A DNA stretch of 46,364 nucleotides from Candidatus Asgardarchaeum abyssi (GTDB lineage: Archaea; Asgardarchaeota; Asgardarchaeia; Asgardarchaeales; Asgardarchaeaceae), in assembly GCA_040225955.1 (NCBI GenBank), contig JBECUL010000013.1:1-46364 (forward strand). Direction: 5' to 3'. Of the stretch, positions 8,559 to 20,993 are shown one piece after another; position 1 is the first letter of the stretch; each line of letters starts with the position of its first letter. A model generated the notes under the pieces. That model made no database searches and was not told where the DNA came from. It was given only the letters and a program-made list of their open reading frames with translations. A program made the position numbers and the translations under genes.

Positions 8559-11105
8559 ATGCCAAGCAAACTTAAGTGTCCATTCTGTGATGGAGAAATA
8601 AAATTTGAAATCTTAGAAAAAGGGAAGTGGAGAATTTATTGTAATAAGTGCGGAAAGGAAGCCTTTACTCCTAAATTTTTTACAGGAGATTATATGGATG
8701 CTTATCACTATTTCCTATCAGTTTATAGAGAAGAGATAGATAAACGGAAGATCGAAAAAGCACCGTATGCTAACATTGACTGGAGAAAATTACCCGATGT
8801 ATTAAAAGCAATACTCATGGATAAAGTTTATACTCTTGTTTATTATAAGTCCTATGACGAGCAAGAAGGAGTTTTCAGTAAACCTATTGATGAACTTGAT
8901 TTACACCCAGCTATAAAAAAATATCTTAAAGCATCTGGAATAGAAAGATTATTTTCTTTTCAAGAAAGGGCAATAAAAACCATATTACGTGGCGAAAATA
9001 CTGTAATTGTTGCGCCTACAGGTAATGGCAAGACTGAAGCATTTCTAATACCTATTGCGCAGAAAATATTAACTGAGAAACCAGATTGGGGCGCATTAGC
9101 TTATCCTACTAGCAGCGCAAAGGCTTTATTTATATATCCTACGAAAGCTCTTGCTCGAGATCAGCTTGATAAATTTAAAAAATTAGAAAGATTTAGCGGA
9201 ATACGATTTGAAATATTTGATGGGGATACTCCCTCTCATAAAAGGAAGGAGATTCTTTCAAATCCACCAGACATCTTAATTACAAACCCAGATATGATAC
9301 ATGTTCATCTTATGAAAAGAAATCCGTTTAAGAAAATAATAAGAGACATAAAATTCGTAGTCCTTGATGAAATTCATCAATATAAGGGAGCATTTGGTTC
9401 GAATGTATACTTTATTTTAAGGAGATTAGAAAGGATAGCTGGCGATTTTCAAATTATTGGCGCATCAGCCACCATTGCCAATCCGAAAGAGTTTGGTGAG
9501 CAGTTATTTGGAAGAAGCGTAACAGTAGTAGAATGCGAAAGAGGTCGGAGAGGAAGAATACACTTTTTGATGCTATACCCACAAACAATTAGTGCCAATT
9601 TGATGATAGGCAGAGTTGCCAAATTACTTACTCAACATGGCTATAAGGTCTTAATTTTTGCTAATTCTCACAAAACTGCAGAACTAATTAATTTGATTTT
9701 AAGACGATTATCTGTAATTAGTTATGTTCATAGGGCTGGACTTCCAGAAAAAATGAGACATCGAATTGAGGATGCATTTAAGAGGGGCGAAATAAAAGCA
9801 CTGGTAGCTACACCTACCTTGGAGCTAGGTGTAGATATAGGCGATCTGGATGCTGTAGTCTCAGTAATTATAGGCATAACTAGATTAATTCAAAGAATTG
9901 GTAGAGCTGGGCGAAGAGGACAAGAAAGTATTGCAATATTAGCATTACGAAACGATGATCCCATAAGTACTTATTATTTAGAAAAACCAGAAGATTATTT
10001 TAAAAATATAGATCCTGCATTTGTAGATCCAGGTAATGAGGTGGTTGCATACCATCAAATATTAGCAGCATCTATTGATTCACCTTTGAAGAAGGATGAA
10101 TTCCAGAATTTTAAAGACATAGTCAATAATTTAATTGCAGAGAATCTTTTAATCGTAAGAAGAAATCGTTTACATCCCTCTTACACAAAAGCAAAAAAGA
10201 TACTAGCAAAATATAATTTACGTGGCGTGGGGGATATCGTAAAAATAACAGATGGAAAGCGTATCCTGGGTTTTAGAAATATGCCAATGGCCGCACGTGA
10301 GTTACATCCCGGAGCTGTATATATTCATGCTGGCACTCTTTATAAATCAATTGATTTCAAGTTTAATGGAAAAGAGGGCTATGCTCTTGTCGAAAAGCTC
10401 CCTACAGACTATCCATATAAGACAGATGCTCTCAGAGCATCATTTCCAGAAATTCTTGAAATAAAAGAAAGAAAAACAGTTTTTGGTACGGAAGTCATTT
10501 ATGGAAAATTAAGAATAACTGAAGAAGTCTATGGTTACGTGGTAACTGAAACATTTACCGAAAAGAAAGTTGAAACTAAAATTTTAGATGAACCTATACG
10601 ATATACCTTTGACACAATGGGTTTCGTCTTTACTGCGCCATCACCAACTAAAACAGTAGACGAATATGCAAAAAAGCCTGATTTACCCGAAGGCTTGCTA
10701 AGTGAGGAGGATTTATTAGCAGGAGCTTTTCATGCTGTGGAGCATGTTCTTATTGAGGGTAGCCCTATGTTAACTGGTGGTGGCTCTTCTGAAATAGGTG
10801 GTATCTCATTAGGGACCTCTGGAATGATAGTTATTTATGATGGTACTCCTGGAGGAAGTGGGCTATCAAAGCTACTCTTCAATAGACTTGATATGGCAAT
10901 TAAGAACTCATTATCAATTTTAAAATCATGCAAATGTAAAAGGATTGACGGATGCCCAGCATGCACATATAGCTATCAATGTGGGAATAATAATAGACCA
11001 TTATTTAAAGTAGGAGCCATTGAAGCGCTGGAGAAACTTTTAAAGGAGAAAGAAAAAATATCGGTAAGACATGAACTATTTACTCTTTTTAAGCCAATTG
11101 TTTAA
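8559..11105 (+). CDS. SF2 DEAH-box helicase with C-terminal DUF1998 Zn-binding domain (Hrq1/MrfA/SftH-like)
   Basis: PTGNGKT, YPTKALARDQ, DGDT, TNPDM, DEIH, SAT, ATPTLELGVDIG, QRIGRAGR; C-terminal CKC..DGCPAC...QCGNNN; N-terminal CPFC..CNKC Zn ribbon. Confidence 0.9.
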   Translation: MPSKLKCPFCDGEIKFEILEKGKWRIYCNKCGKEAFTPKFFTGDYMDAYHYFLSVYREEIDKRKIEKAPYANIDWRKLPDVLKAILMDKVYTLVYYKSYDEQEGVFSKPIDELDLHPAIKKYLKASGIERLFSFQERAIKTILRGENTVIVAPTGNGKTEAFLIPIAQKILTEKPDWGALAYPTSSAKALFIYPTKALARDQLDKFKKLERFSGIRFEIFDGDTPSHKRKEILSNPPDILITNPDMIHVHLMKRNPFKKIIRDIKFVVLDEIHQYKGAFGSNVYFILRRLERIAGDFQIIGASATIANPKEFGEQLFGRSVTVVECERGRRGRIHFLMLYPQTISANLMIGRVAKLLTQHGYKVLIFANSHKTAELINLILRRLSVISYVHRAGLPEKMRHRIEDAFKRGEIKALVATPTLELGVDIGDLDAVVSVIIGITRLIQRIGRAGRRGQESIAILALRNDDPISTYYLEKPEDYFKNIDPAFVDPGNEVVAYHQILAASIDSPLKKDEFQNFKDIVNNLIAENLLIVRRNRLHPSYTKAKKILAKYNLRGVGDIVKITDGKRILGFRNMPMAARELHPGAVYIHAGTLYKSIDFKFNGKEGYALVEKLPTDYPYKTDALRASFPEILEIKERKTVFGTEVIYGKLRITEEVYGYVVTETFTEKKVETKILDEPIRYTFDTMGFVFTAPSPTKTVDEYAKKPDLPEGLLSEEDLLAGAFHAVEHVLIEGSPMLTGGGSSEIGGISLGTSGMIVIYDGTPGGSGLSKLLFNRLDMAIKNSLSILKSCKCKRIDGCPACTYSYQCGNNNRPLFKVGAIEALEKLLKEKEKISVRHELFTLFKPIV

Positions 11106-11181
11106 AACAAAAATATATATAACTTTGAAAGGATAAATAACGATATGTATACTAAAATTAAGTTTCTACATTTGTACAAAG

Positions 11182-11769
11182 GTGATATTCTTGAGTGAAA
11201 ATATTTACTCTGGAACTGTTGTCTATAAGGTTGTTTTGATCGGCGATGGAGCAGTTGGAAAAACAAGTTTAAGATTGCGTTATATGGGGAAAGGGTTTCA
11301 ACCTATTTACATGGAAACTATTGGTGCAGATTTCGCTGTTAACGATGTTGATGTAGAAGTTAAAGGTAAAAGGTATATTTGTAGACTACAGATATGGGAT
11401 CTTGCTGGACAGCCAAGATTTTCAGAAGTAAGGTCATTATTTTATAGTGGAGCTAAAGGTGCGATAGCTGTTTATGATAAAACAAGACATGAGACATATG
11501 CACACATAAAGGATTGGATTAGTGAAATGTTAAGAGGTACAGGTGAGATACCTATAGTTTTAGTTGGAAATAAAAAAGATTTATGTGATGAGGGAGATGT
11601 TAGCTGCGTAAGCTATGAGGATGGAATTAAACTTAAAGAAGAACTTGAAAGTTTTCTTGGTGAGACAGTTATTTTTCTTGAGACTAGCGCAAAAACTGGA
11701 GAAAATGTGAAAGAAGCTTTTATAGAATTAAGTAAGTTGATGATAGAGAAATATATATTACGTATTTAA
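11182..11769 (+). CDS. Rab-like small GTPase (Ras superfamily)
   Basis: G1 GDGAVGKT, G2 ETIGADF, G3 WDLAGQ, G4 NKKD, G5 ETSAK; RabF-like motifs; no C-terminal prenylation Cys. Start may be TTG 11191. Confidence 0.9.
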   Translation: MIFLSENIYSGTVVYKVVLIGDGAVGKTSLRLRYMGKGFQPIYMETIGADFAVNDVDVEVKGKRYICRLQIWDLAGQPRFSEVRSLFYSGAKGAIAVYDKTRHETYAHIKDWISEMLRGTGEIPIVLVGNKKDLCDEGDVSCVSYEDGIKLKEELESFLGETVIFLETSAKTGENVKEAFIELSKLMIEKYILRI

Positions 11770-11798: not shown

Positions 11799-13093
11799 CA
11801 GAGATCTTGCCATAAGTAGAGGCGAGAGAGCGGGCGAAAAATTTTTTGTCGGCTCCGTACTCTCTCACCGATGAACCATGTCAAGATATACAATACACGT
11901 ACTCCACATTTTAAAAATTGCATTTCACCCTTATATACTTAGAGCTTCGAAACAAATCGCACCAATCTTCGTAAAAAAGAGAAATAGAGGCACTCCAAAT
12001 TATGCTAAGGCAATCGACGTGATGACCGCAGTAATCGAAGGACATAGCCGCATCTCAAATATAATCATTGTTTCTCTCCGATCCAGAATAAAATCTATCA
12101 TAACTCCGCAACCTACTTTAAAATGCTATATCGCTTGGATTGTCGGGATAACTTCGTACCATGGTATGAAGCGTATAAACTATCCACTGTCTCATTGCTT
12201 CGAGAAGCTGGATACGAATTTATAAAGCCATATGTTGCCAATCGTAGTGGCATCGTAAGCTTCGACTTATCCGCACTGGCTGTCTGGGGAAACAACTTCG
12301 AATTTGCAGATCGCGGCTATGGAATTGATCCAAAACAGCGTGGGTACCAACCTGCAGCGATAGCCATAGAAGTTGGTGATTTGACTCTTTGGACGTACTC
12401 TAAACTCGTGCCAGGATACATTACCTCGCAACTTATGTTTGACACTCTATTTTCCTCTCTTAAGAGGCTTGTGGAGGAGACCAACTTTGTGCCAAAGGTG
12501 GTGCTTCTCGACGCAGGTTTTCATAGCATTGAACATATCATGAAACTAGACAAACACTTTAGGTTTATTATGGCAGCACCAAAGATTCAGCGATATACGA
12601 ATCTAAAATACGAACAAGTTACGTCTACAATTTCGTATAGTGACATCATGATAAAAGGGCGCAGGTTTAGAGTCATTAAGAAGCGAACGAAGAACGAGAA
12701 AGGGAAGTACGAGGACCACTATTTTGTAACTAACATCTTCGACATTTCGGTGAAACGTGTGTTAGAGCTTTATAGGAAGCGCTGGGTTATCGAAAATTCG
12801 TTATTTAATGAGATAAAGAATGGATTCGAATTGCACATTCCGAGTAGCAATTTTGTAGTGAGTGCGTTATACATTGAGCTTGTGAAATTTGCGTACAATA
12901 TTTTTCGATTGGCGATGTTGAGGGTATTTGAGGCAATGGGTGTTCGTATACGTGGTGTTAGGCGATTTAGAGAACACATGCAGTATGCGATCACGATGGC
13001 TATAGTGTCGTCCCAAGGACGGTTAAAAGACACCTAGTGATTGGGCGAAAAAATTAAGGGGGTGATGCGCCAAAAGTTACGGCAAGATCTCTG
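11799..13093 (+). mobile_element. insertion sequence, ISH3-like (IS4/IS701-related DDE), 1295 bp
   Basis: Terminal IRs CAGAGATCTTGCC (13 bp perfect, 17/19 extended) at 11799 and 13093; 7-bp direct repeat TCTTCCA at 11792-11798 and 13094-13100; higher GC than flanks. Confidence 0.9.
11878..13037 (+). pseudogene. DDE transposase split into two overlapping frames (11878-12225 and 12123-13037, -1 shift)
   Basis: Second frame has VSFDLS, VLLDAGF, YFVTN and LYRKRWVIENSLFNEIK (Y-2-R-3-E-K type motif). Programmed versus mutational shift is unresolved. Confidence 0.75.
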
Positions 13094-13375
13094 TCTTCCA
13101 ATTATATTATTTATGCTGAGATACTTTTGCTTGTGTGCAATTTCTTATTCTTGGAAGTAATAAAATAAAAAATATATGTGATAATTTTTAAATGAAATAT
13201 ATAGTTTAGCGCTAAACTAGTTGATGTTTCATTAGTTATTAATCAGAACGTTAAGTTGTTAATTAATTGGATATAAATAAAAACTATTGTTACTAATATG
13301 TATTTATAAACTTGTAGGAATCTAATGTATATATAACATAATTCTCTAAAAATAATTTGAATATAAGAAAGGACG

Positions 13376-15997
13376 GTGAATTTATTGCTGGGGGAACGAG
13401 AACTAAGGAGACTTCTCTCCGATATTACGCTAATATCAAATAAATTTAAATTAAGTGATAAAACTAAAGTTGATATTAAAGAGCTTGATGAACTAATTAG
13501 AGGATATTTCGAATTATCATCAGAGATTGAAAAGTTAGGCATTTTTAGCTTTATGAAAAAGAAGAAGCTAAAAGAGAAACAGCAAAAAATATTAGAAACA
13601 ATCTCAGCGACAATTCCAACTACATTAAGAAGCATATTAAATGATGTAAAACCTTTTATAAATAGGCTAAATGAGCTTTATGAAAAAGCATCTCCTATCG
13701 TTAAGGATAAAGTAAAATATACGCCGATGACTCTATCTACTTTACCAAGTGATCCAATAGCACTCGTAGAATATATTCATAATGTTGTTAATACAGCTGT
13801 TGAATCTCAGAATCAACTTAGAAATGCTCTTTTGAGCATTGTCCAAGACTTATGGAAATCAAATAATTTGAAGTTTAATATCTATAGAAAGTATATAGCA
13901 CTGGATGCTGATAAAGTTAGATTGTCATCTTCTGAAATTGTTGAAAGTGAGGATATTGATACTCTTATAGATTTTTACTATAAGTTGAAGAAAGAGGAAG
14001 AATTCTTAGATGCTCTAAAAATGCAAGTAAGAATCTCTTTCCAAGAGGTTCTTAAATCAAGGCTGGAGAACCTTGAAGCCTACTTAGGAATGATAGAAGG
14101 ATTGGGAATAATCATTAAATCGTCAATTAAATCTAAAATAGAATCTCTGAGAAATTCTCTTAAGGAACCTCGTGAATTATCATCATTACAAAGTCTTGAG
14201 AAGGAAATAAATGAATTAGAAGAGGTAATTAAAGACGATTTACGCAGAGAAATTATAAAATTAAAAAACGAAACTATTTCTGCCACAGAAAAAATTCCTA
14301 ATCTTCCACCAGAGCCCGAAATTATTGGTGAATCAATTGACAAATTGATAGAAGGTTATCAAGCTATTCGTACTTGGCATGTAAGAGTTGTTAGTACAAT
14401 TATCATTCAAATAAAAGACCTTCTTAAGGATGCTGACGCTGCATTAGGAAAATTATCACCTGATTTAGCTGATCCGATTAAGAGAAAAATAGAAAATATT
14501 AGGAATAGGGCAAATAAGGTTACTAAGCTCGAAGAAGCTGTTTCACTCTATTGGGAAACTGTAAAACAAATAGAAAATTGGAAAGAATTGCTTTTTAAAG
14601 AAATACAAAAACGTATGGGTGAATACAATAGAACACTTCAGATGATTAAAGAAGTCATAGAACGCGTACCATCTTTCTTAGTTATCTCTTTACCAGAGGA
14701 TATATCAGGGGCTTCTCTTTCTTTTCTTGCTAATGTTTTATATACAATCCGTACAAAAACTGAACAAAGAGATAAAGTCTTTAAAGACGCAATAATTGGC
14801 GAACTTAATAGTTTTAAGAGTATAATATTAAGTGTGCCTGAGGAGTATCAAAAGCAATTCGAAAATGCAATAAAGTTAATAGATTCAACAATAGAAAAGA
14901 TCAGAGCAACAACTAATACAGAAGAAATTAGGTTGCACTTCATAAGAACCAGAGCAGAATTAGAAAAAGAAATAGGCGAAATACTTCAAGGTGTAAGGGA
15001 TAAGCAAGTTTTAAAAATTCGACTTATGCTTGCAAAAATGCCTGGTGCTCCAGACGTCTCTGACGCAATAAATCAAATAATGAGCTTACCTATTGATATA
15101 ACAAAACCAGAAGAGTACATAATAAAAATAAATAGTACAATGCACAACCAGATCATTAACAAGCTTAAAGATTTCTTGATGAAGGAAGTAAGTGATTATC
15201 TTGATATATTAAACATATTAAAGGAATTTAACCTAGATTTCTCTAAAGAAAGAGAAAAACTTCTTGAGATAAGTAAAAAACTTGCTGATGCTAAAGATGC
15301 GGAGGGGCTTGGTGACTTAGGAAGAGAGTTTAGAGTGACGATTACAAATAAAGATTTCATTAATGTTATTAAAAATTGGATTGAAACTATGACAACAAGC
15401 ATGTCTAATGCATTATCTGAATTAGGAAGAGGAGTTACTGAGGCTGAAGGAATCGCAACACTTATTAGAGAAAGTAAAACTGCGGATCCAACAAATCCTG
15501 CTCAATTGGTATCATTGGTTAAGAAATTAGTTAAAGTTTGGGAGCTAATAAGAGAATATATAATAAAAATAGAAGATATTGAGTATTCTAAGTTCTTAGA
15601 AGCTGCAAAAAGTTACAATGTCTATGAGACAGTTATGAAAATATATGAAATACATAAAGATGAATTCAGTGAGAAAATATTTCCCTTACTTACTCTTGAA
15701 CAGAAAAGGGAGATGATAACTAAAATTAAGACACCAGAACTTGTAGAAATACTACAAGACATTAGAAAACTAGAAAAAGACTTTCTGGAAAAATTAAAGG
15801 AAATTAGTGTTTGGCATAAAGCAGTTAGAATTCTTATGGCTGGGTTCGATTTTTCTGCGCCTGAGTCGGAGCTGAAAAATAGAGTGAAAGAAATTAAGAA
15901 GAATATCAGAAAAATGTATAAGCGAGAGGATATAATTTCATATTTAGAATGGGTTGTAGAGTATTTAGCTAGTAGAGGAGGGCAAGTAAGTGAGTAG
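13376..15997 (+). CDS. large all-alpha coiled-coil/helical-bundle repeat protein, first gene of tubulin-like operon
   Basis: 873 aa of E/K/L/I-rich amphipathic helices punctuated by Pro-rich linkers; no Walker motifs or TM; stop overlaps the GTG of the next gene. Start may be TTG 13385. Confidence 0.75.
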   Translation: MNLLLGERELRRLLSDITLISNKFKLSDKTKVDIKELDELIRGYFELSSEIEKLGIFSFMKKKKLKEKQQKILETISATIPTTLRSILNDVKPFINRLNELYEKASPIVKDKVKYTPMTLSTLPSDPIALVEYIHNVVNTAVESQNQLRNALLSIVQDLWKSNNLKFNIYRKYIALDADKVRLSSSEIVESEDIDTLIDFYYKLKKEEEFLDALKMQVRISFQEVLKSRLENLEAYLGMIEGLGIIIKSSIKSKIESLRNSLKEPRELSSLQSLEKEINELEEVIKDDLRREIIKLKNETISATEKIPNLPPEPEIIGESIDKLIEGYQAIRTWHVRVVSTIIIQIKDLLKDADAALGKLSPDLADPIKRKIENIRNRANKVTKLEEAVSLYWETVKQIENWKELLFKEIQKRMGEYNRTLQMIKEVIERVPSFLVISLPEDISGASLSFLANVLYTIRTKTEQRDKVFKDAIIGELNSFKSIILSVPEEYQKQFENAIKLIDSTIEKIRATTNTEEIRLHFIRTRAELEKEIGEILQGVRDKQVLKIRLMLAKMPGAPDVSDAINQIMSLPIDITKPEEYIIKINSTMHNQIINKLKDFLMKEVSDYLDILNILKEFNLDFSKEREKLLEISKKLADAKDAEGLGDLGREFRVTITNKDFINVIKNWIETMTTSMSNALSELGRGVTEAEGIATLIRESKTADPTNPAQLVSLVKKLVKVWELIREYIIKIEDIEYSKFLEAAKSYNVYETVMKIYEIHKDEFSEKIFPLLTLEQKREMITKIKTPELVEILQDIRKLEKDFLEKLKEISVWHKAVRILMAGFDFSAPESELKNRVKEIKKNIRKMYKREDIISYLEWVVEYLASRGGQVSE

Positions 15998-17312
15998 CTC
16001 TGGTACTGCTGATATTTTTGCAATAGGCATAGGAGAATGTGGCAGTAATTTGCTAGCAAGTTACTTAGCTCAGAAAAGATATGGAGAGACGATTCCAAGG
16101 TTAAAAGGATATTTACTTATGAATACAGATAAAGCAGATATAGCAAAAGCTAGGGAAAAATACAAAATTCCTAAGGACAACACATTGGTATATGGGGAAA
16201 CTGAATTTGGAGTTGGTGGAAAATTTGTTGAAGGCTATAAAGCCGTTATTCAGTCTAAAAATGCTATTTTGTCTCAGTTGAGAGATCTTGGGTATGAAGG
16301 GATCAGTGGTTTCATTATTTTTACATCACTAGGCGGCGGTACAGGATGTGGTGGGACTCCGGCTTTAATTAAAATATTAAGAGAACGATTTATGAAAGAG
16401 GAGCAAAGAAGAGTATATATTTACGTTGTTGGTGTTTTACCGTTTAAAGGGCAAAGTTCTGAAGCTTTAAATGCCACTTGGGCTCTTTCAAGACTAGTAA
16501 AAGCACATATTGAAGAAGAAGGCGCAGATCTAATAATACTTCTTAGCAATAGGACAATGCTTGATAGACTTTTACAGTTCAAGCGTGGAGTTGTAACCGA
16601 TTTACTGGCATCAAAGTTGGGATGGGATATTTCACAACTAACTGAAATAGAAGTGCCATCAACAATAGATGGTGCTACCGAATATGCTAAAAAAATTGAG
16701 GAGTCATTTGTAGATCTAATTAATCCTTTGGCCGTTAAAGTTATAGAATTTATGCTAAGACCTGCTGTTTATGAAACAGGGAAAGAAGTATTTCCAACGA
16801 CAGACTTAGCTGACTATGCGAGGAAGTTAGATCCTATTGTAGTTCCTGCGTTATATGAGGATGTTGCTTTTATACCCAATGCTGGAGACATTGAAGAACA
16901 AATTAGATTTATAATAAGGCATACAATTGAAGAACTTAGTCTAGTTAGAGTTAATAGAAATCCTCAAGCCACAAGTGCATATTATATATTATTTGGGCCA
17001 AAGGATGTTGCGAAAATCGATTATGACCCCTATATAAAAAGAGCACTATCCGATTATCTTGCTCCAGGAGCATCAATAATTCCATCAATCGTTCAGTATC
17101 AGAATGCAACATCACTTGATCTATTAGTTTTATTAGGATTGCCTAAATTGGATGAACTAAAAGATCTAATAAATGAAGCATATATGTTGATTCAGCTACA
17201 TAGCGGTAGTCCTCTTAAGGAGAAATGGTTTGAAAGAACTAAAGGAGTACCAAAAGAAAAAATAATAGAGGCAGTCGAAGACCTGAAAACCTTACTAGGA
17301 ATACAAATATAA
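15990..17312 (+). CDS. tubulin/FtsZ superfamily GTPase (divergent, CetZ/tubulin-like rather than FtsZ)
   Basis: T1 IGIGECGSN, T2 MNTD, T3 GVGG, T4 SLGGGTGCG (16332-16352), VLPF, NAT, LSN, T7 TTDLADY. Confidence 0.9.
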   Translation: MSSSGTADIFAIGIGECGSNLLASYLAQKRYGETIPRLKGYLLMNTDKADIAKAREKYKIPKDNTLVYGETEFGVGGKFVEGYKAVIQSKNAILSQLRDLGYEGISGFIIFTSLGGGTGCGGTPALIKILRERFMKEEQRRVYIYVVGVLPFKGQSSEALNATWALSRLVKAHIEEEGADLIILLSNRTMLDRLLQFKRGVVTDLLASKLGWDISQLTEIEVPSTIDGATEYAKKIEESFVDLINPLAVKVIEFMLRPAVYETGKEVFPTTDLADYARKLDPIVVPALYEDVAFIPNAGDIEEQIRFIIRHTIEELSLVRVNRNPQATSAYYILFGPKDVAKIDYDPYIKRALSDYLAPGASIIPSIVQYQNATSLDLLVLLGLPKLDELKDLINEAYMLIQLHSGSPLKEKWFERTKGVPKEKIIEAVEDLKTLLGIQI

Positions 17313-17327
17313 TCATCTTTTTTATTA

Positions 17328-18218
17328 TTGTTGGATGGTGTCTCAATGAAAAAGGAAGATCTCAAAATTCAAACCATATATAAAATCATGGATTTTCAAC
17401 TTCAACTTCTTATGAATATTATAAATGAAGATATATTTGACAAATTGGATGAAGATAAAAGAAATACCCTTAGAATGAATGCTCTCGGTGCAATTGAATA
17501 CATAAATTTGCTTTTAACAAATTTTCCAAATTTTAAGAATTTAGAGAGTTTGGTGTCGATCAAAGAAAGGTTATTTGAAGTTATTAAGAAGTTAAAAGGC
17601 AAGCCTCCAATCGAGGAGGAAATGATCGTAGAAAGCAAGCAAGCTGACCCATGGGGGATAATTGAATCTACGAAGAATTTGATTAATAACTATTCAAAAT
17701 CATTAGATGTTCTTATACCTCTATTCTTTTTTGGTATTATAGAGGAATTACATAATAAAGATATACCGCCAGAAGCTATAAGAATACCGTCAATTACACT
17801 TAGAAACATTATTAATAAACTTCTAAGAGAGGCTCCCTATTCTCAATTGTTACACAAAATATACGAAACAAGCAACATAATGCTGATCTCTGAAGAAAAT
17901 GCAAAAATAGTCGATCTGGTTGAATCATATAGTAGGAAGTTTGCAACAAAGACTTCAGGGTCGGAATATAGTTCCTTGATAATAGATGAAGCGAAAATGT
18001 TTCTGGAAGCATTTAATTGGGGCGGATCTAAAACAGAAAAAAGAATTTTCCAACTCATTTATGAACATGCTTTAGAACATATTAAAAAGGCTGAGAAAGA
18101 AAAGGATGCTCTTCGTAGAGCAATTCATGCAGCAACAGCAATATTGCTATGCAGAATAAGTGCGGCTCTTACCCAATTACCTCGTATAGATAGCAGACTA
18201 AGAAAAATGAAACCCTAA
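17328..18218 (+). CDS. hypothetical all-alpha protein, third gene of tubulin-like operon
   Basis: Long ORF with host-like composition 15 bp after the tubulin-like gene; likely ATG at 17346; no recognisable motif. Confidence 0.7.
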   Translation: MLDGVSMKKEDLKIQTIYKIMDFQLQLLMNIINEDIFDKLDEDKRNTLRMNALGAIEYINLLLTNFPNFKNLESLVSIKERLFEVIKKLKGKPPIEEEMIVESKQADPWGIIESTKNLINNYSKSLDVLIPLFFFGIIEELHNKDIPPEAIRIPSITLRNIINKLLREAPYSQLLHKIYETSNIMLISEENAKIVDLVESYSRKFATKTSGSEYSSLIIDEAKMFLEAFNWGGSKTEKRIFQLIYEHALEHIKKAEKEKDALRRAIHAATAILLCRISAALTQLPRIDSRLRKMKP

Positions 18219-18226
18219 TTATTTGT

Positions 18227-19099
18227 TCATTTTTCACTTTTTAGTTTTTTAATCTCATCTTCTAAATCCCAAGCTTTGTTTCTAAATCTCTTAGCAGTAG
18301 CTTTTGGAAGATCATTTAAATAAGATTCTACTCTTTCAAGAATCTCAAGAGCAAGATCATACAACTTAGCATTTTTATAAGCTTCAGCTGCCATTAAATA
18401 ATATTCACACGCTTTTTTAAAATTTCCAGCAACTTCGAAAATTTCACCAGCAGTTGATGCTGCATCACCTATTGATGATGGGTCACCTAGTTCTTCAGCG
18501 AGTTTTAAAGCCTTTTTAAGGTAAGCTTCTGCATTTTTTATATTTTCCATATCCAGATAGATATTCGCCATATCTTGGTATAAACTTATTAGAGCCTCGC
18601 TTATGCCCTCAGCAGAATATATTTTTTCTGCCTTTTTAAGGATCTTAATGGCATCCTCATCTCTTTCAAGTTCGCTTAGAATAAGCCCATATGTATAAAG
18701 AGCATCAGCATGAGCTATTGAGTCATTTACCTTTTCAAATAACTTTATAGCCTTTTCTATGTATTTTAATGCCTCTTCTGGTTTGCTTAAATTAAGTAGA
18801 TTTACAGCAAGATTGTATGCTGCATTGGCTAGATCTTCAACCTTGTTGAGACTTTGATAAATAGAATAAGCCTCTTTTATTAAACTAATAGATTCCTCAT
18901 AGAACTCAAAATTTGTTAAAAGTGTACCTAATTCAACGGCAATGTCCGCGTATAATAATTTATTACTTTCATCATCTTTTAAAATTTTTAATATATCATG
19001 ATATATGGTCACAGCCTCATTTATTCTATTTTCTTGGACCATTTTCCTAGCGCGTTCTATTTTCTCTTTAATGTTTTCAACCATTAAAATATCCCTCAC
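18227..19099 (-). CDS. TPR-repeat protein (about 40-aa repeats, alpha-SNAP/TPR_12-like)
   Basis: Repeats of A..Y.LG.......EEA..Y.EKA..L with about 40-residue periodicity across the protein. Confidence 0.85.
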   Translation of the reverse strand: MRDILMVENIKEKIERARKMVQENRINEAVTIYHDILKILKDDESNKLLYADIAVELGTLLTNFEFYEESISLIKEAYSIYQSLNKVEDLANAAYNLAVNLLNLSKPEEALKYIEKAIKLFEKVNDSIAHADALYTYGLILSELERDEDAIKILKKAEKIYSAEGISEALISLYQDMANIYLDMENIKNAEAYLKKALKLAEELGDPSSIGDAASTAGEIFEVAGNFKKACEYYLMAAEAYKNAKLYDLALEILERVESYLNDLPKATAKRFRNKAWDLEDEIKKLKSEK

Positions 19100-19780
19100 T
19101 CAATAAATATGAGATGTCCAATTCTCTATAATTTTTAATGTCTCACTATTAAGTTTCTGAATATACAAAAACTTTCCACTACCAACTTTTGCTAATTTTT
19201 CCATAAATAAATTTTGAGGTTTCTTGGAGCTACTAACTTGAATTGATGACAGACTTATTTTTTCATCATGCACAAACTTTATCGGTGATATCCCACAGTT
19301 CCACAATCCATCTGATACTAAAATAAAATGGTAAGAATCATAAACCTCTACTATTTTCTTAGCTTTTAAGATCCCTAAGTAAATATTAGAGCCTCCGAAT
19401 GCTCTTTTCGAGAGCTCTATTAAAGCTAGGGATAATGTTTTCCTAATAGAAGGTTTTCCCCCAGATAATGAAATGAATACTTTTCCACCACTAAATGTAA
19501 TATTATCTGCTATATGATTGAACCAAACAACAGCGACCATTACATTTCTTTCACTTAATAACTCTTTTATTGTCTGAAGAAGAATTCCAGCGCAGGCTAA
19601 TTTTGAAATCTTCATACCAGGAGATATGTAATTTAAGAAGGACAAAAATTTCTCATGAGATGTTTTAGGAGATATTTTAAAAAACGTAAGAAAACTATCA
19701 TCTTCTAATAAAATTTCTTCTTTCTCCATGCTCTTTGATATGTCCAATATAAAAACTATTTTCATTAAATTACTATTCAT
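19100..19780 (-). CDS. von Willebrand factor A domain protein
   Basis: IVFILDISKSM (DxSxS MIDAS), VVWF, GGSNI, ILVSDG, MEKLA..GSGKF. Confidence 0.8.
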   Translation of the reverse strand: MNSNLMKIVFILDISKSMEKEEILLEDDSFLTFFKISPKTSHEKFLSFLNYISPGMKISKLACAGILLQTIKELLSERNVMVAVVWFNHIADNITFSGGKVFISLSGGKPSIRKTLSLALIELSKRAFGGSNIYLGILKAKKIVEVYDSYHFILVSDGLWNCGISPIKFVHDEKISLSSIQVSSSKKPQNLFMEKLAKVGSGKFLYIQKLNSETLKIIENWTSHIY

Positions 19781-20993
19781 GGCTTATTCCTCGCAATATG
19801 CATTCCGATATGTCTAAAGAAATTATTTCCAATACTCTATCCACAAACTCTAAAAGATTACCACTATACTGAAAGAGTTCACCACTAGTTATTTCTGAAA
19901 GCTCGCTATATAATTCAATAAGGTCTTTGTTTTCATAAGAGGTCAAAATTGCAATTATAGGAATTTTTCTATCAATTCTCTCTCTCTTTATTACATCTAT
20001 CGGGTGCACTCCGAAAATTTCGGAATCGTCAGTGACAATCAGCAATAAGTCTGGAGATTTCTCCTTAAAGTTTCTTAGCATCTCAAAATATTTATATAAA
20101 GCATTACCTATCTGATTTACTCCTTTACCTATATTTATTGTTGAGAAAAAGCTTGTTAATGAACTTAAAGAGTCCTTTATAACATTTAGAGAATATGAAA
20201 TTCCAAATTTCTCCATATTATGTTGCGGTCTTGCACTGAAAAAAATTCCTTGTTCTTGAAATATAAATAAGTTAAATTTGCTAAATAGTGAACTGTTAAG
20301 TAACTTTCTTAGTAATGTTAATGTAAAAATATATGAAAATAATAATCTTGAGATTGTTTTTTCAAGAGATATAGAAATAGGAAAATCCTGAATGTTTTCT
20401 TTGATATATTCTATATCCTCTTCACTTAAGGGGACATCCATATGATTCATAGAGTTATGTGCACTTATAATTACACCTATTGTTAAATCATGCAGATCTA
20501 TCATGGAGTAATTAATCTTAGAGTATTCATATGATATTGCACCAACACTTTCACCAAGTCCTTTGATATCTATGAGAATTGCTCTATCTCCAAGATTTAA
20601 AAATAATCCTGAGCTTGAAATAAAAATATCATCACCAAGCAAGTTAAAAATATCAATTAGCTCTGATTTTTTATTTTTTTGGAAAATTTTTACATGTATT
20701 TCATCTAATTTATTTACTTCACCTAAATAATGCATCAAAGTCACTCTATCACGCTTTCCAAAACGATACTTACTAGTAAGGTCATTAACTATTACCTTAT
20801 CTGGAGGAATATTATCGTCTATAAAAGCCCTTGCAAGGAACGTTCTCTTTTTTATACTCATAAGTAAAATATCACCAGGATATATATAATATTTATCTGC
20901 AATAACCTTAGATAATTTTATCCATCCTGGCCATACGTCTTTAGAACTCTCGAGTTGAAATGTTTCCTTTATATGCTCCCACATGATCATCAC
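19773..20993 (-). CDS. CDC48/NSF N-terminal double-psi-barrel-like domain fused to a degenerate vWA domain
   Basis: N-terminal KDV..GWIKLS...IYPGDILL...KRTFLARA.IDD.IP.DKVIVN...DRVTL pattern; C-terminal IGVIISAHNSM...LLIVTD...LSEITSGELF with MIDAS lost; no Walker A. Confidence 0.55.
   Translation of the reverse strand: MMIMWEHIKETFQLESSKDVWPGWIKLSKVIADKYYIYPGDILLMSIKKRTFLARAFIDDNIPPDKVIVNDLTSKYRFGKRDRVTLMHYLGEVNKLDEIHVKIFQKNKKSELIDIFNLLGDDIFISSSGLFLNLGDRAILIDIKGLGESVGAISYEYSKINYSMIDLHDLTIGVIISAHNSMNHMDVPLSEEDIEYIKENIQDFPISISLEKTISRLLFSYIFTLTLLRKLLNSSLFSKFNLFIFQEQGIFFSARPQHNMEKFGISYSLNVIKDSLSSLTSFFSTINIGKGVNQIGNALYKYFEMLRNFKEKSPDLLLIVTDDSEIFGVHPIDVIKRERIDRKIPIIAILTSYENKDLIELYSELSEITSGELFQYSGNLLEFVDRVLEIISLDISECILRGISHE

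Follow-up and report, generated by a model that had tools for sequence, protein, structure and literature searches.

A conserved three-gene module around a tubulin-superfamily GTPase with two helical partners in Asgard archaea

What might a compact group of three genes, the middle one encoding a tubulin-like GTPase and the outer two encoding helical proteins, do in an Asgard archaeon? The group lies in a 46,364-nucleotide stretch of Candidatus Asgardarchaeum abyssi DNA (contig JBECUL010000013.1, positions 1 to 46,364), hereafter the window, where our reading of the open reading frames (ORFs) shows three same-direction ORFs on the + strand at 13376-18218, in the order A, T, C. A first-pass annotation had put forward the same three genes, with an overlap of 8 base pairs (bp) between the first two, as a candidate novel cytoskeletal operon, and the ORF coordinates bear out both the placement and the overlap.

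13376-15997, + strand: gene A, 873 amino acids; predicted all-helical rod protein of an Asgard-only family, family and fold not recognised
15990-17312, + strand: gene T, 440 amino acids; tubulin/FtsZ-superfamily GTPase, member of the Asg.Tub clade by sequence
17328-18218, + strand: gene C, 296 amino acids; helical, from an Asgard-only family; ATG 17346 is probably where it truly starts

We consider it probable that the locus encodes an Asgard-specific, conserved module of three proteins, with a polymerising tubulin-superfamily GTPase at its centre, two dedicated partners and a role separate from division.

T matches the Pfam family PF00091 (Tubulin) over residues 9-192 (E 2.7e-18; 67.4 bits against a cut-off of 33 bits) and falls far short of the FtsZ equivalog TIGR00065 in NCBIfam (33.9 bits, cut-off 295.2). 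With the family profile, the closest solved relatives were CetZ proteins (E 1e-11; PDB 4b46, 4b45 and 3zid), followed by Asgard AtubA, BtubA/B, OdinTubulin and gamma-tubulin at E ~1e-5; the N-domain of T gave E ~2e-5 against AtubA and ~3e-5 against OdinTubulin. T is 51% identical to OLS26264.1 over its full length (E 4.7e-144, coverage 99%), a sequence that founded the Asg.Tub group together with PWI48967.1, KXH77455.1 and OLS30664.1 (PMC9871819, supplementary file 35). On the strength of this full-length match we assign T to the Asg.Tub clade, whose C-terminal sequence blocks it also has. Asg.Tub was described as a novel CetZ-like group of Asgardarchaeota with CetZ-type indels, unstable in position between CetZ and tubulins and judged closer to CetZ; its long stem lies outside canonical CetZ and pairs with Halo.Tub at 62% support, and the group was termed scarce, with a neighbourhood of unknown, often coiled-coil genes (Santana-Molina, del Saz-Navarro and Devos 2023, PMC9871819). 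It is probably also the 'CetZ-related Asgard archaeal clade' that serves as outgroup in bioRxiv 10.64898/2026.02.15.705738.

The GTPase family is thus already published and its coiled-coil neighbours had been noted, which weakens the claim of novelty in the first-pass annotation. What stands as new are the partner families and the strictness of the trio: the Asg.Tub paper dealt with the GTPase alone, whereas here two partner families are defined that are strictly co-inherited with it in about a third of Asgard genomes. A literature search returned no description of the partners and no experiment on the Asg.Tub family.

The evidence for joint inheritance comes from related loci and from genome surveys. 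Full-length relatives of T at ~50-55% identity occur in genomes labelled Thor-, Heimdall-, Hod-, Hermod-, Borr- and Sif-archaeota, and relatives within 'Asgardarchaeia' reach 70-89%. T of one Thor and one Heimdall genome has A and C homologues on either side, in the same order and with short gaps, and the outer flanks share nothing. The A-T-C order was found in 83 of 83 related Asgard loci where the contig permits, every absent A or C falling at a contig end, and clustering of all flanking ORFs left A, T and C as the only families common to all 55 long loci. Among 301 Asgard species genomes, T was present in 114, C in 113 and A in 118; in the high-quality genomes, each of the three was present in 32 of 90. 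The source genome, sole member of its family in this sample, carries all three genes, and of the other 29 Asgard families the same eight hold all three (T in 66/76, 15/19, 19/21, 5/5, 4/4, 2/2, 1/1 and 1/1 of their genomes). They were not found in the remaining families, including ones with 68, 29, 11 and 11 genomes. The few genomes in which A, T and C disagree have truncated matches at contig ends or are at most 86% complete. We conclude that roughly one in three Asgard genomes inherits the trio as a unit, and that the arrangement is far beyond chance because it recurs in 83 loci and is the sole conserved gene set in their flanks; the partners are very strongly co-conserved with the GTPase, which is the check that the first-pass annotation had proposed.

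These data bear directly on the notion that A, T and C are mere neighbours with unrelated functions. Their order and tight spacing are kept across classes amid wholly different flanks, they share one phyletic pattern, and A and T have been duplicated as a pair (see below). The co-inheritance data effectively refute this notion, to which we give almost no credence.

Distribution also speaks to a role in DNA segregation. TubZ, TubR and TubY form a three-gene layout around a tubulin-like GTPase, and by analogy T could be the motor and A or C a DNA-binding adaptor. However, the operon is chromosomal and almost always single-copy, and its lineage-wide spread fits vertical descent. No relatives were found in viral contigs, PADLOC or PHROGs, although plasmids were not searched, and Pfam finds no DNA-binding domain in A or C, a miss that is not proof of absence. 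By these sequence searches the operon appears to be neither mobile nor defensive, and we regard a segregation system as very improbable.

The module would also act apart from the FtsZ1/FtsZ2/SepF division machinery. No second tubulin-family gene and no SepF lies within the window. The other two PF00091 genes of the genome are canonical FtsZ (~169 bits each) on other contigs, and its SepF is on yet another contig, apart from both. That FtsZ and SepF are encoded elsewhere points to a role of the operon separate from division, and the absence of both from the side of T is as the first-pass annotation had described it.

The gene junctions are equally compact.

15990-15997, + strand: 8-bp A/T overlap GTGAGTAG, with the T start GTG at 15990-15992 and the A stop TAG at 15995-15997

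The overlap suggests that A and T are translationally coupled, and the spacing from A to T is comparably short across the 83 related loci. The distance from T to C depends on the start of C. The 15-bp gap given by the first-pass annotation holds if C starts at TTG 17328 and becomes 33 bp if it starts at ATG 17346. A GGTG Shine-Dalgarno-like motif precedes this ATG and an independent gene call uses it, which makes the later start and the 33-bp gap more likely.

We next turn to whether T looks like an active, polymerising GTPase.

16332-16355, + strand: signature (T4) GTP-binding loop GGGTGCGG, T residues 115-122
16797-16814, + strand: probable T7 catalytic loop TTDLAD, T residues 270-275, with D272 and D275 invariant
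17211-17309, + strand: tubulin-type H11'-H12-like helices, T residues 408-440, W-F-x-R-x-K-G-V ... E-A-x-E-D-L

The signature loop aligns with the G-box of CetZ, AtubA and FtsZ. Across 22 T family members, G115-G119, G121 and G122 of GGGTGCGG are invariant and C120 nearly so; the superfamily signature is GGGTG[ST]G, and the Cys at position 120 takes the place of Ser in tubulin and Thr in FtsZ. The T1 loop GIGECGSN is almost invariant in the T family. Judged from its sequence, the signature loop is intact and would bind GTP. In these 22 members, which come from distant Asgard classes, D272 and D275 are invariant, as are the G-box and many residues of the N-domain.

The catalytic loop was placed by aligning C-terminal halves. 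In hhalign, PTTDLADYARKLDP of T aligns with the OdinTubulin T7-H8 segment LNMDLMEMAHNLV at low probability (E 0.039), the two sharing the motif D-L-x-[DE]-aromatic-x-x-x-L-x-P. In the TTDLAD register the rest of the C-terminal domain aligns end to end with OdinTubulin through H12, and strands S7 to S10 fall in consistent order against both FtsZ and OdinTubulin, again at low probability. This register implies a C-terminal domain of normal length and an insertion of ~40 residues between H6 and H7, which coincides with the most variable stretch of the T family alignment. Two other placements were rejected: LINPLA (N245) would make the C-terminal domain too long and its acidic positions are not conserved, and the G/N-x-D-x-x-D near residue 213 suggested by global hhalign leaves no space for helix H7. 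We hold the T7 loop of T to be probably intact. By standard numbering, we take D272 and D275 to correspond to D251 and E254 of alpha-tubulin and to D209 and D212 of E. coli FtsZ. At the far C-terminus, residues 408-440 align with four OdinTubulin sequences at a per-column confidence of 8-9 in hhalign.

From these features we infer polymerisation and GTPase activity along familiar lines. T would bind GTP via its signature loop and assemble head-to-tail into protofilaments, in which the TTDLAD loop of each T would complete the GTPase site of its neighbour, in the manner of FtsZ, CetZ and tubulin. The rate of evolution points the same way: mean column identity is 62% for T and 42-43% for A and C in the family alignments, and such slow evolution of T relative to its partners fits a filament former with many self-contacts and interfaces. 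No fused form of T was found among the longer proteins searched, which is weak evidence.

What, then, might the partners add? A belongs to no family in Pfam, NCBIfam, PADLOC or PHROG. Its AlphaFold2 model (predicted local distance difference test (pLDDT) 84.7, predicted template modelling score 0.38) has 28 helices and no strands and can be read as a long flexible rod.

13736-14836, + strand: three weakly similar tandem helical-bundle units of ~120 residues each, A residues 121-487
15620-15994, + strand: C-terminal region of A, residues 749-873, with invariant W813-H814 and Y856-L857 in the family alignment and conservation profile

The units were compared by hhalign of alignment segments, each match extending over ~100 columns: 121-245 matched 361-487 at E 1e-4, 246-360 matched 361-487 at E 3e-4, and 121-245 matched 246-360 at E 2e-3. 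Heimdall-type A is ~300 amino acids longer, and region 319-411 of the query A matches it twice.

The first-pass annotation had cast the partners as nucleators, anchors or bundlers and had in mind EzrA/spectrin, GCP and MAP65 folds. Fold searches returned no match to these folds beyond the helical-bundle background, which weakens that part of the earlier claim and leaves the roles as proposals. Specifically, Foldseek matched no PDB entry to A below E 0.18. PRC1 (4l3i, 4l6y) was among the top rows at E 0.24-0.64, with a probability of 0.30-0.35 and a template modelling (TM) score of 0.10-0.20. In the VIA wide and second-look searches A gave background Z values only, from matches that cover just its first 90-130 residues, its model being longer than these tools can handle. 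EzrA was absent from the top fold-search rows and gave no Pfam match, and the maximum 19-residue Kyte-Doolittle mean of the A family is 1.56, an EzrA-type N-terminal transmembrane anchor being absent. A word-indexed search with the A profile returned five family members and was swamped by low-complexity candidates, and an Atlas feature search returned its own family only.

The gamma-tubulin complex deserves separate mention. T might form no filaments at all and instead be bound stably to A, and at times also to C, as a GTP-regulated switch or assembly factor, comparable to gamma-tubulin with GCP or tubulin with its folding cofactors. A is always found with T and appears translationally coupled to it, it is large and all-helical with a GCP-like or cofactor-D-like size, and GCP chains are among its weak structural matches (Z 6.3-7.3 over 86-145 residues). 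These Z values, however, lie inside the noise for helical proteins, and A has no Pfam GCP match; provided that T7 is correctly assigned, the invariant D272 and D275 fit selection for a GTPase site that depends on the polymer; and T evolves far more slowly than A, as filament formers do. On balance we hold a non-filamentous complex to be unlikely.

Under the filament reading, A would be an elongated helical-bundle rod of ~900-1300 residues and an obligate partner of T, most likely one that binds along, spaces, cross-links or scaffolds T filaments.

C is likewise without a family in Pfam, NCBIfam, PADLOC and PHROG. Its AlphaFold2 model (pLDDT 85.8) shows a bundle at the N-terminus and, beyond a disordered linker, a helical domain that is well packed.

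17349-17591, + strand: predicted three-helix bundle, C residues 8-88; the disordered linker after it varies in length
17646-18215, + strand: helical C-terminal domain of C, residues 107-296, pLDDT mostly >90, fold not recognised

Thor-type members have 40-70 more residues in this linker. Invariant residues in the family alignment are D107, P131, L166, E168-A169-P170, L174, G232, E237, R239 and K295. Foldseek found nothing in the PDB below E 0.7, the VIA wide search gave generic three-helix-bundle matches of the N-terminal part only (Z ~10), and matches in the ESM Atlas reached TM scores of at most 0.40. A search among 1.84 billion proteins returned 50 cluster representatives, all 50 of them true family members. 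In one related locus (L130, 541-7809, + strand) the operon is expanded: A has 1311 and C 602 amino acids, the A-T-C order is kept, and this larger C has an extra N-terminal region of 285 residues without a Pfam family. C could be an accessory adaptor or regulator whose bundle, flexible linker and helical domain join the assembly to something else. A complex prediction for T with C (score 0.15, mark 0.32) weighs neither for nor against binding.

That C may be accessory is suggested by a second module in one Heimdall-type genus. This paralogous module consists of a 311-amino-acid protein, A2 (~1140 amino acids) and T2 (~445 amino acids; 55% identical to T1). No C homologue is present in it, and the upstream 311-amino-acid protein is not related to C. 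A and T were duplicated together; a module that lacks C marks A-T as the core pair and C as accessory. The second module was found at seven loci (L087, 4920-10678, - strand, and L133-L138). Beside it a gene for a Gtr1/RagA-like GTPase of ~735 amino acids is present at 7/7 loci (partial at a contig end in two), and a further Gtr1/RagA-like GTPase gene of ~300 amino acids at 5/7. Since all seven loci come from one genus, this synteny may reflect relatedness alone.

We then looked at the surroundings of the operon within the window.

13038-13375, + strand: AT-rich intergenic spacer of 338 bp 5' of A, by its sequence a likely promoter region
13303-13309, + strand: TATA-like TTTATAA read in this spacer

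Directly upstream of the putative promoter region is a DDE transposase gene (12123-13037, + strand; PF01609, E 1.3e-12), so that in this genome an insertion sequence lies between the operon and the genes upstream of it. Further upstream, within 8559-11769 (+ strand) and thus 1.6-4.8 kb from the operon, are genes for a DEAD/MrfA-type helicase of 848 amino acids and a Ras/Rab-like small GTPase of 195 amino acids (PF00071, E 4e-43). On the other side, a convergent gene run (18227-20993, - strand) ends 8 bp from C. The gene nearest C encodes a tetratricopeptide repeat (TPR) protein with an additional match to the SNAP family (PF14938, E 1.8e-9), and two further proteins of the run have no Pfam family. 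Flank clustering of the 55 long loci showed that this run is not kept beside the operon in other lineages. In Thor-type loci (L001, 3067-4986, - strand, and 31 others) a protein of ~640 amino acids is encoded head-to-head with A; it matches IFT122-like and other WD40 beta-propellers, and neither the other classes nor the window have it next to the operon.

Such neighbours raise the question of whether the filaments would act in trafficking or in the remodelling of membranes and not in cell shape, as might be the case for the CetZ-like protein of Halo_adaptin. Asg.Tub groups with Halo.Tub at the support given above, Halo.Tub includes a Haloquadratum walsbyi protein, and a CetZ-like H. walsbyi protein has been linked by others to ESCRT-like sorting (PMC10936438). 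The Rab-like GTPase and the SNAP-like TPR gene of the window, the CDC48 and Arf-like GTPase genes of a Heimdall locus, the WD40 propeller in Thor loci and the Rag/Gtr1-like GTPases beside the second A-T pair would all suit such a role. Yet no neighbour of this kind is conserved across classes, and Asgard genomes are rich in such genes. The H. walsbyi protein of the two papers is not confirmed as identical, and none of the three proteins has a membrane-binding element. We regard a role of the filaments in membrane remodelling or trafficking as quite unlikely.

How does this module compare with known systems? The locus is unlike division, canonical CetZ, TubZ or true-tubulin contexts, among which the first-pass annotation had not recognised it. 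The likeness of T to CetZ proteins, such as Haloferax CetZ1, which acts in cell shape, aligns over the N-domain only. Both presumably combine an FtsZ-like nucleotide half with extra C-terminal helices, and to our knowledge CetZ has no dedicated operon partners. With true tubulins T shares a tubulin-type H11'-H12 motif and, if its T7 loop is rightly placed, a T7-H8 motif; the N-domain likeness is weak (E ~1e-5). AtubA/B and BtubA/B are paired, and T is a single GTPase; BtubA/B with BtubC nevertheless resembles A-T-C in joining polymer genes to a gene for an all-helical partner. FtsZ with EzrA would be a working parallel, a tubulin-superfamily polymer with a spectrin-like helical rod protein, but compared with FtsZ and its partners EzrA, SepF and ZapA, T scores far below the FtsZ cut-off and A has neither a transmembrane anchor nor an EzrA match. 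Halo.Tub, the weakly supported sister group of Asg.Tub, and the CetZ-like component of the haloarchaeal Halo_adaptin system, which may or may not be the same protein, compare with T as a non-canonical CetZ-like GTPase in a lineage-specific multi-gene system. The neighbours in that ESCRT-like system are wH, PspA-like, Vps4-like and IG/WD40 proteins (Makarova et al. 2024, PMC10936438), wholly unlike A and C. OdinTubulin is flanked by same-direction unannotated genes described as coiled-coil (PMC9871819). In an Odin-type locus (L132, 5036-9440, - strand) we saw OdinTubulin (425 amino acids) with co-directional neighbours of 539 and 484 amino acids at gaps of 35 and 17 bp. These neighbours were considered as A or C homologues and rejected, as the probability was at most 1% and homology was not detected.

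Several points weigh against the proposed polymerising module. Co-inheritance is functional coupling and does not imply physical binding. Confident sequence alignment of T reaches the N-terminal GTPase domain only (to residue 195 in the T-FtsZ profile alignment), and the T7 assignment comes from a low-probability alignment, with other hhalign runs putting the FtsZ T7 elsewhere. For A and C, fold matches did not rise above the background for helical bundles, which leaves the partner roles as guesses, and none of A, T and C has a hydrophobic segment, a membrane anchor or a transmembrane segment. We nevertheless consider the module the best explanation of the locus: the analysis establishes gene structure, family membership, strict co-inheritance and predicted folds, and from there on polymerisation, GTPase activity, contact among A, T and C and the partner roles are proposed.

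A more daring form of this explanation can be stated. A tubulin-superfamily polymer of archaea might here have its first dedicated filament-associated proteins in A and C, with A as a spectrin-like rod that docks on the tubulin-type H11'-H12 outer surface and spaces or cross-links the filaments, and C as a tether of the assembly to another cellular structure. We offer it as a doubtful conjecture.

Traces of the operon are also found outside assembled genomes. Near-identical DNA is present in metagenome runs from marine sediments and hydrothermal vents in at least 11 studies (word share 0.25-0.74), which points to a widespread marine subsurface lineage. In a marine-sediment metatranscriptome, short contigs 90-99% identical to the operon fall on A, the A/T junction, T and C; two of the DNA runs were aligned to the operon along with this RNA run (X20). 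They give a hint that the operon is expressed, and only a weak one because DNA carry-over is possible.

True tubulins are rare in Asgard genomes. By comparison, roughly one in three of the Asgard genomes searched has the module described here, several families having it in nearly all their members, and this wide occurrence means that it may be the commonest non-division tubulin-type system of the Asgard archaea. Its GTPase appears to join a CetZ-like nucleotide half with tubulin-style surface helices, and the trio is a defined three-protein set for expression, imaging and structure solving. If A and C were indeed dedicated filament-associated proteins, this would be an Asgard cytoskeleton regulated as by eukaryotic microtubule-associated proteins, one that evolved independently of those or earlier.

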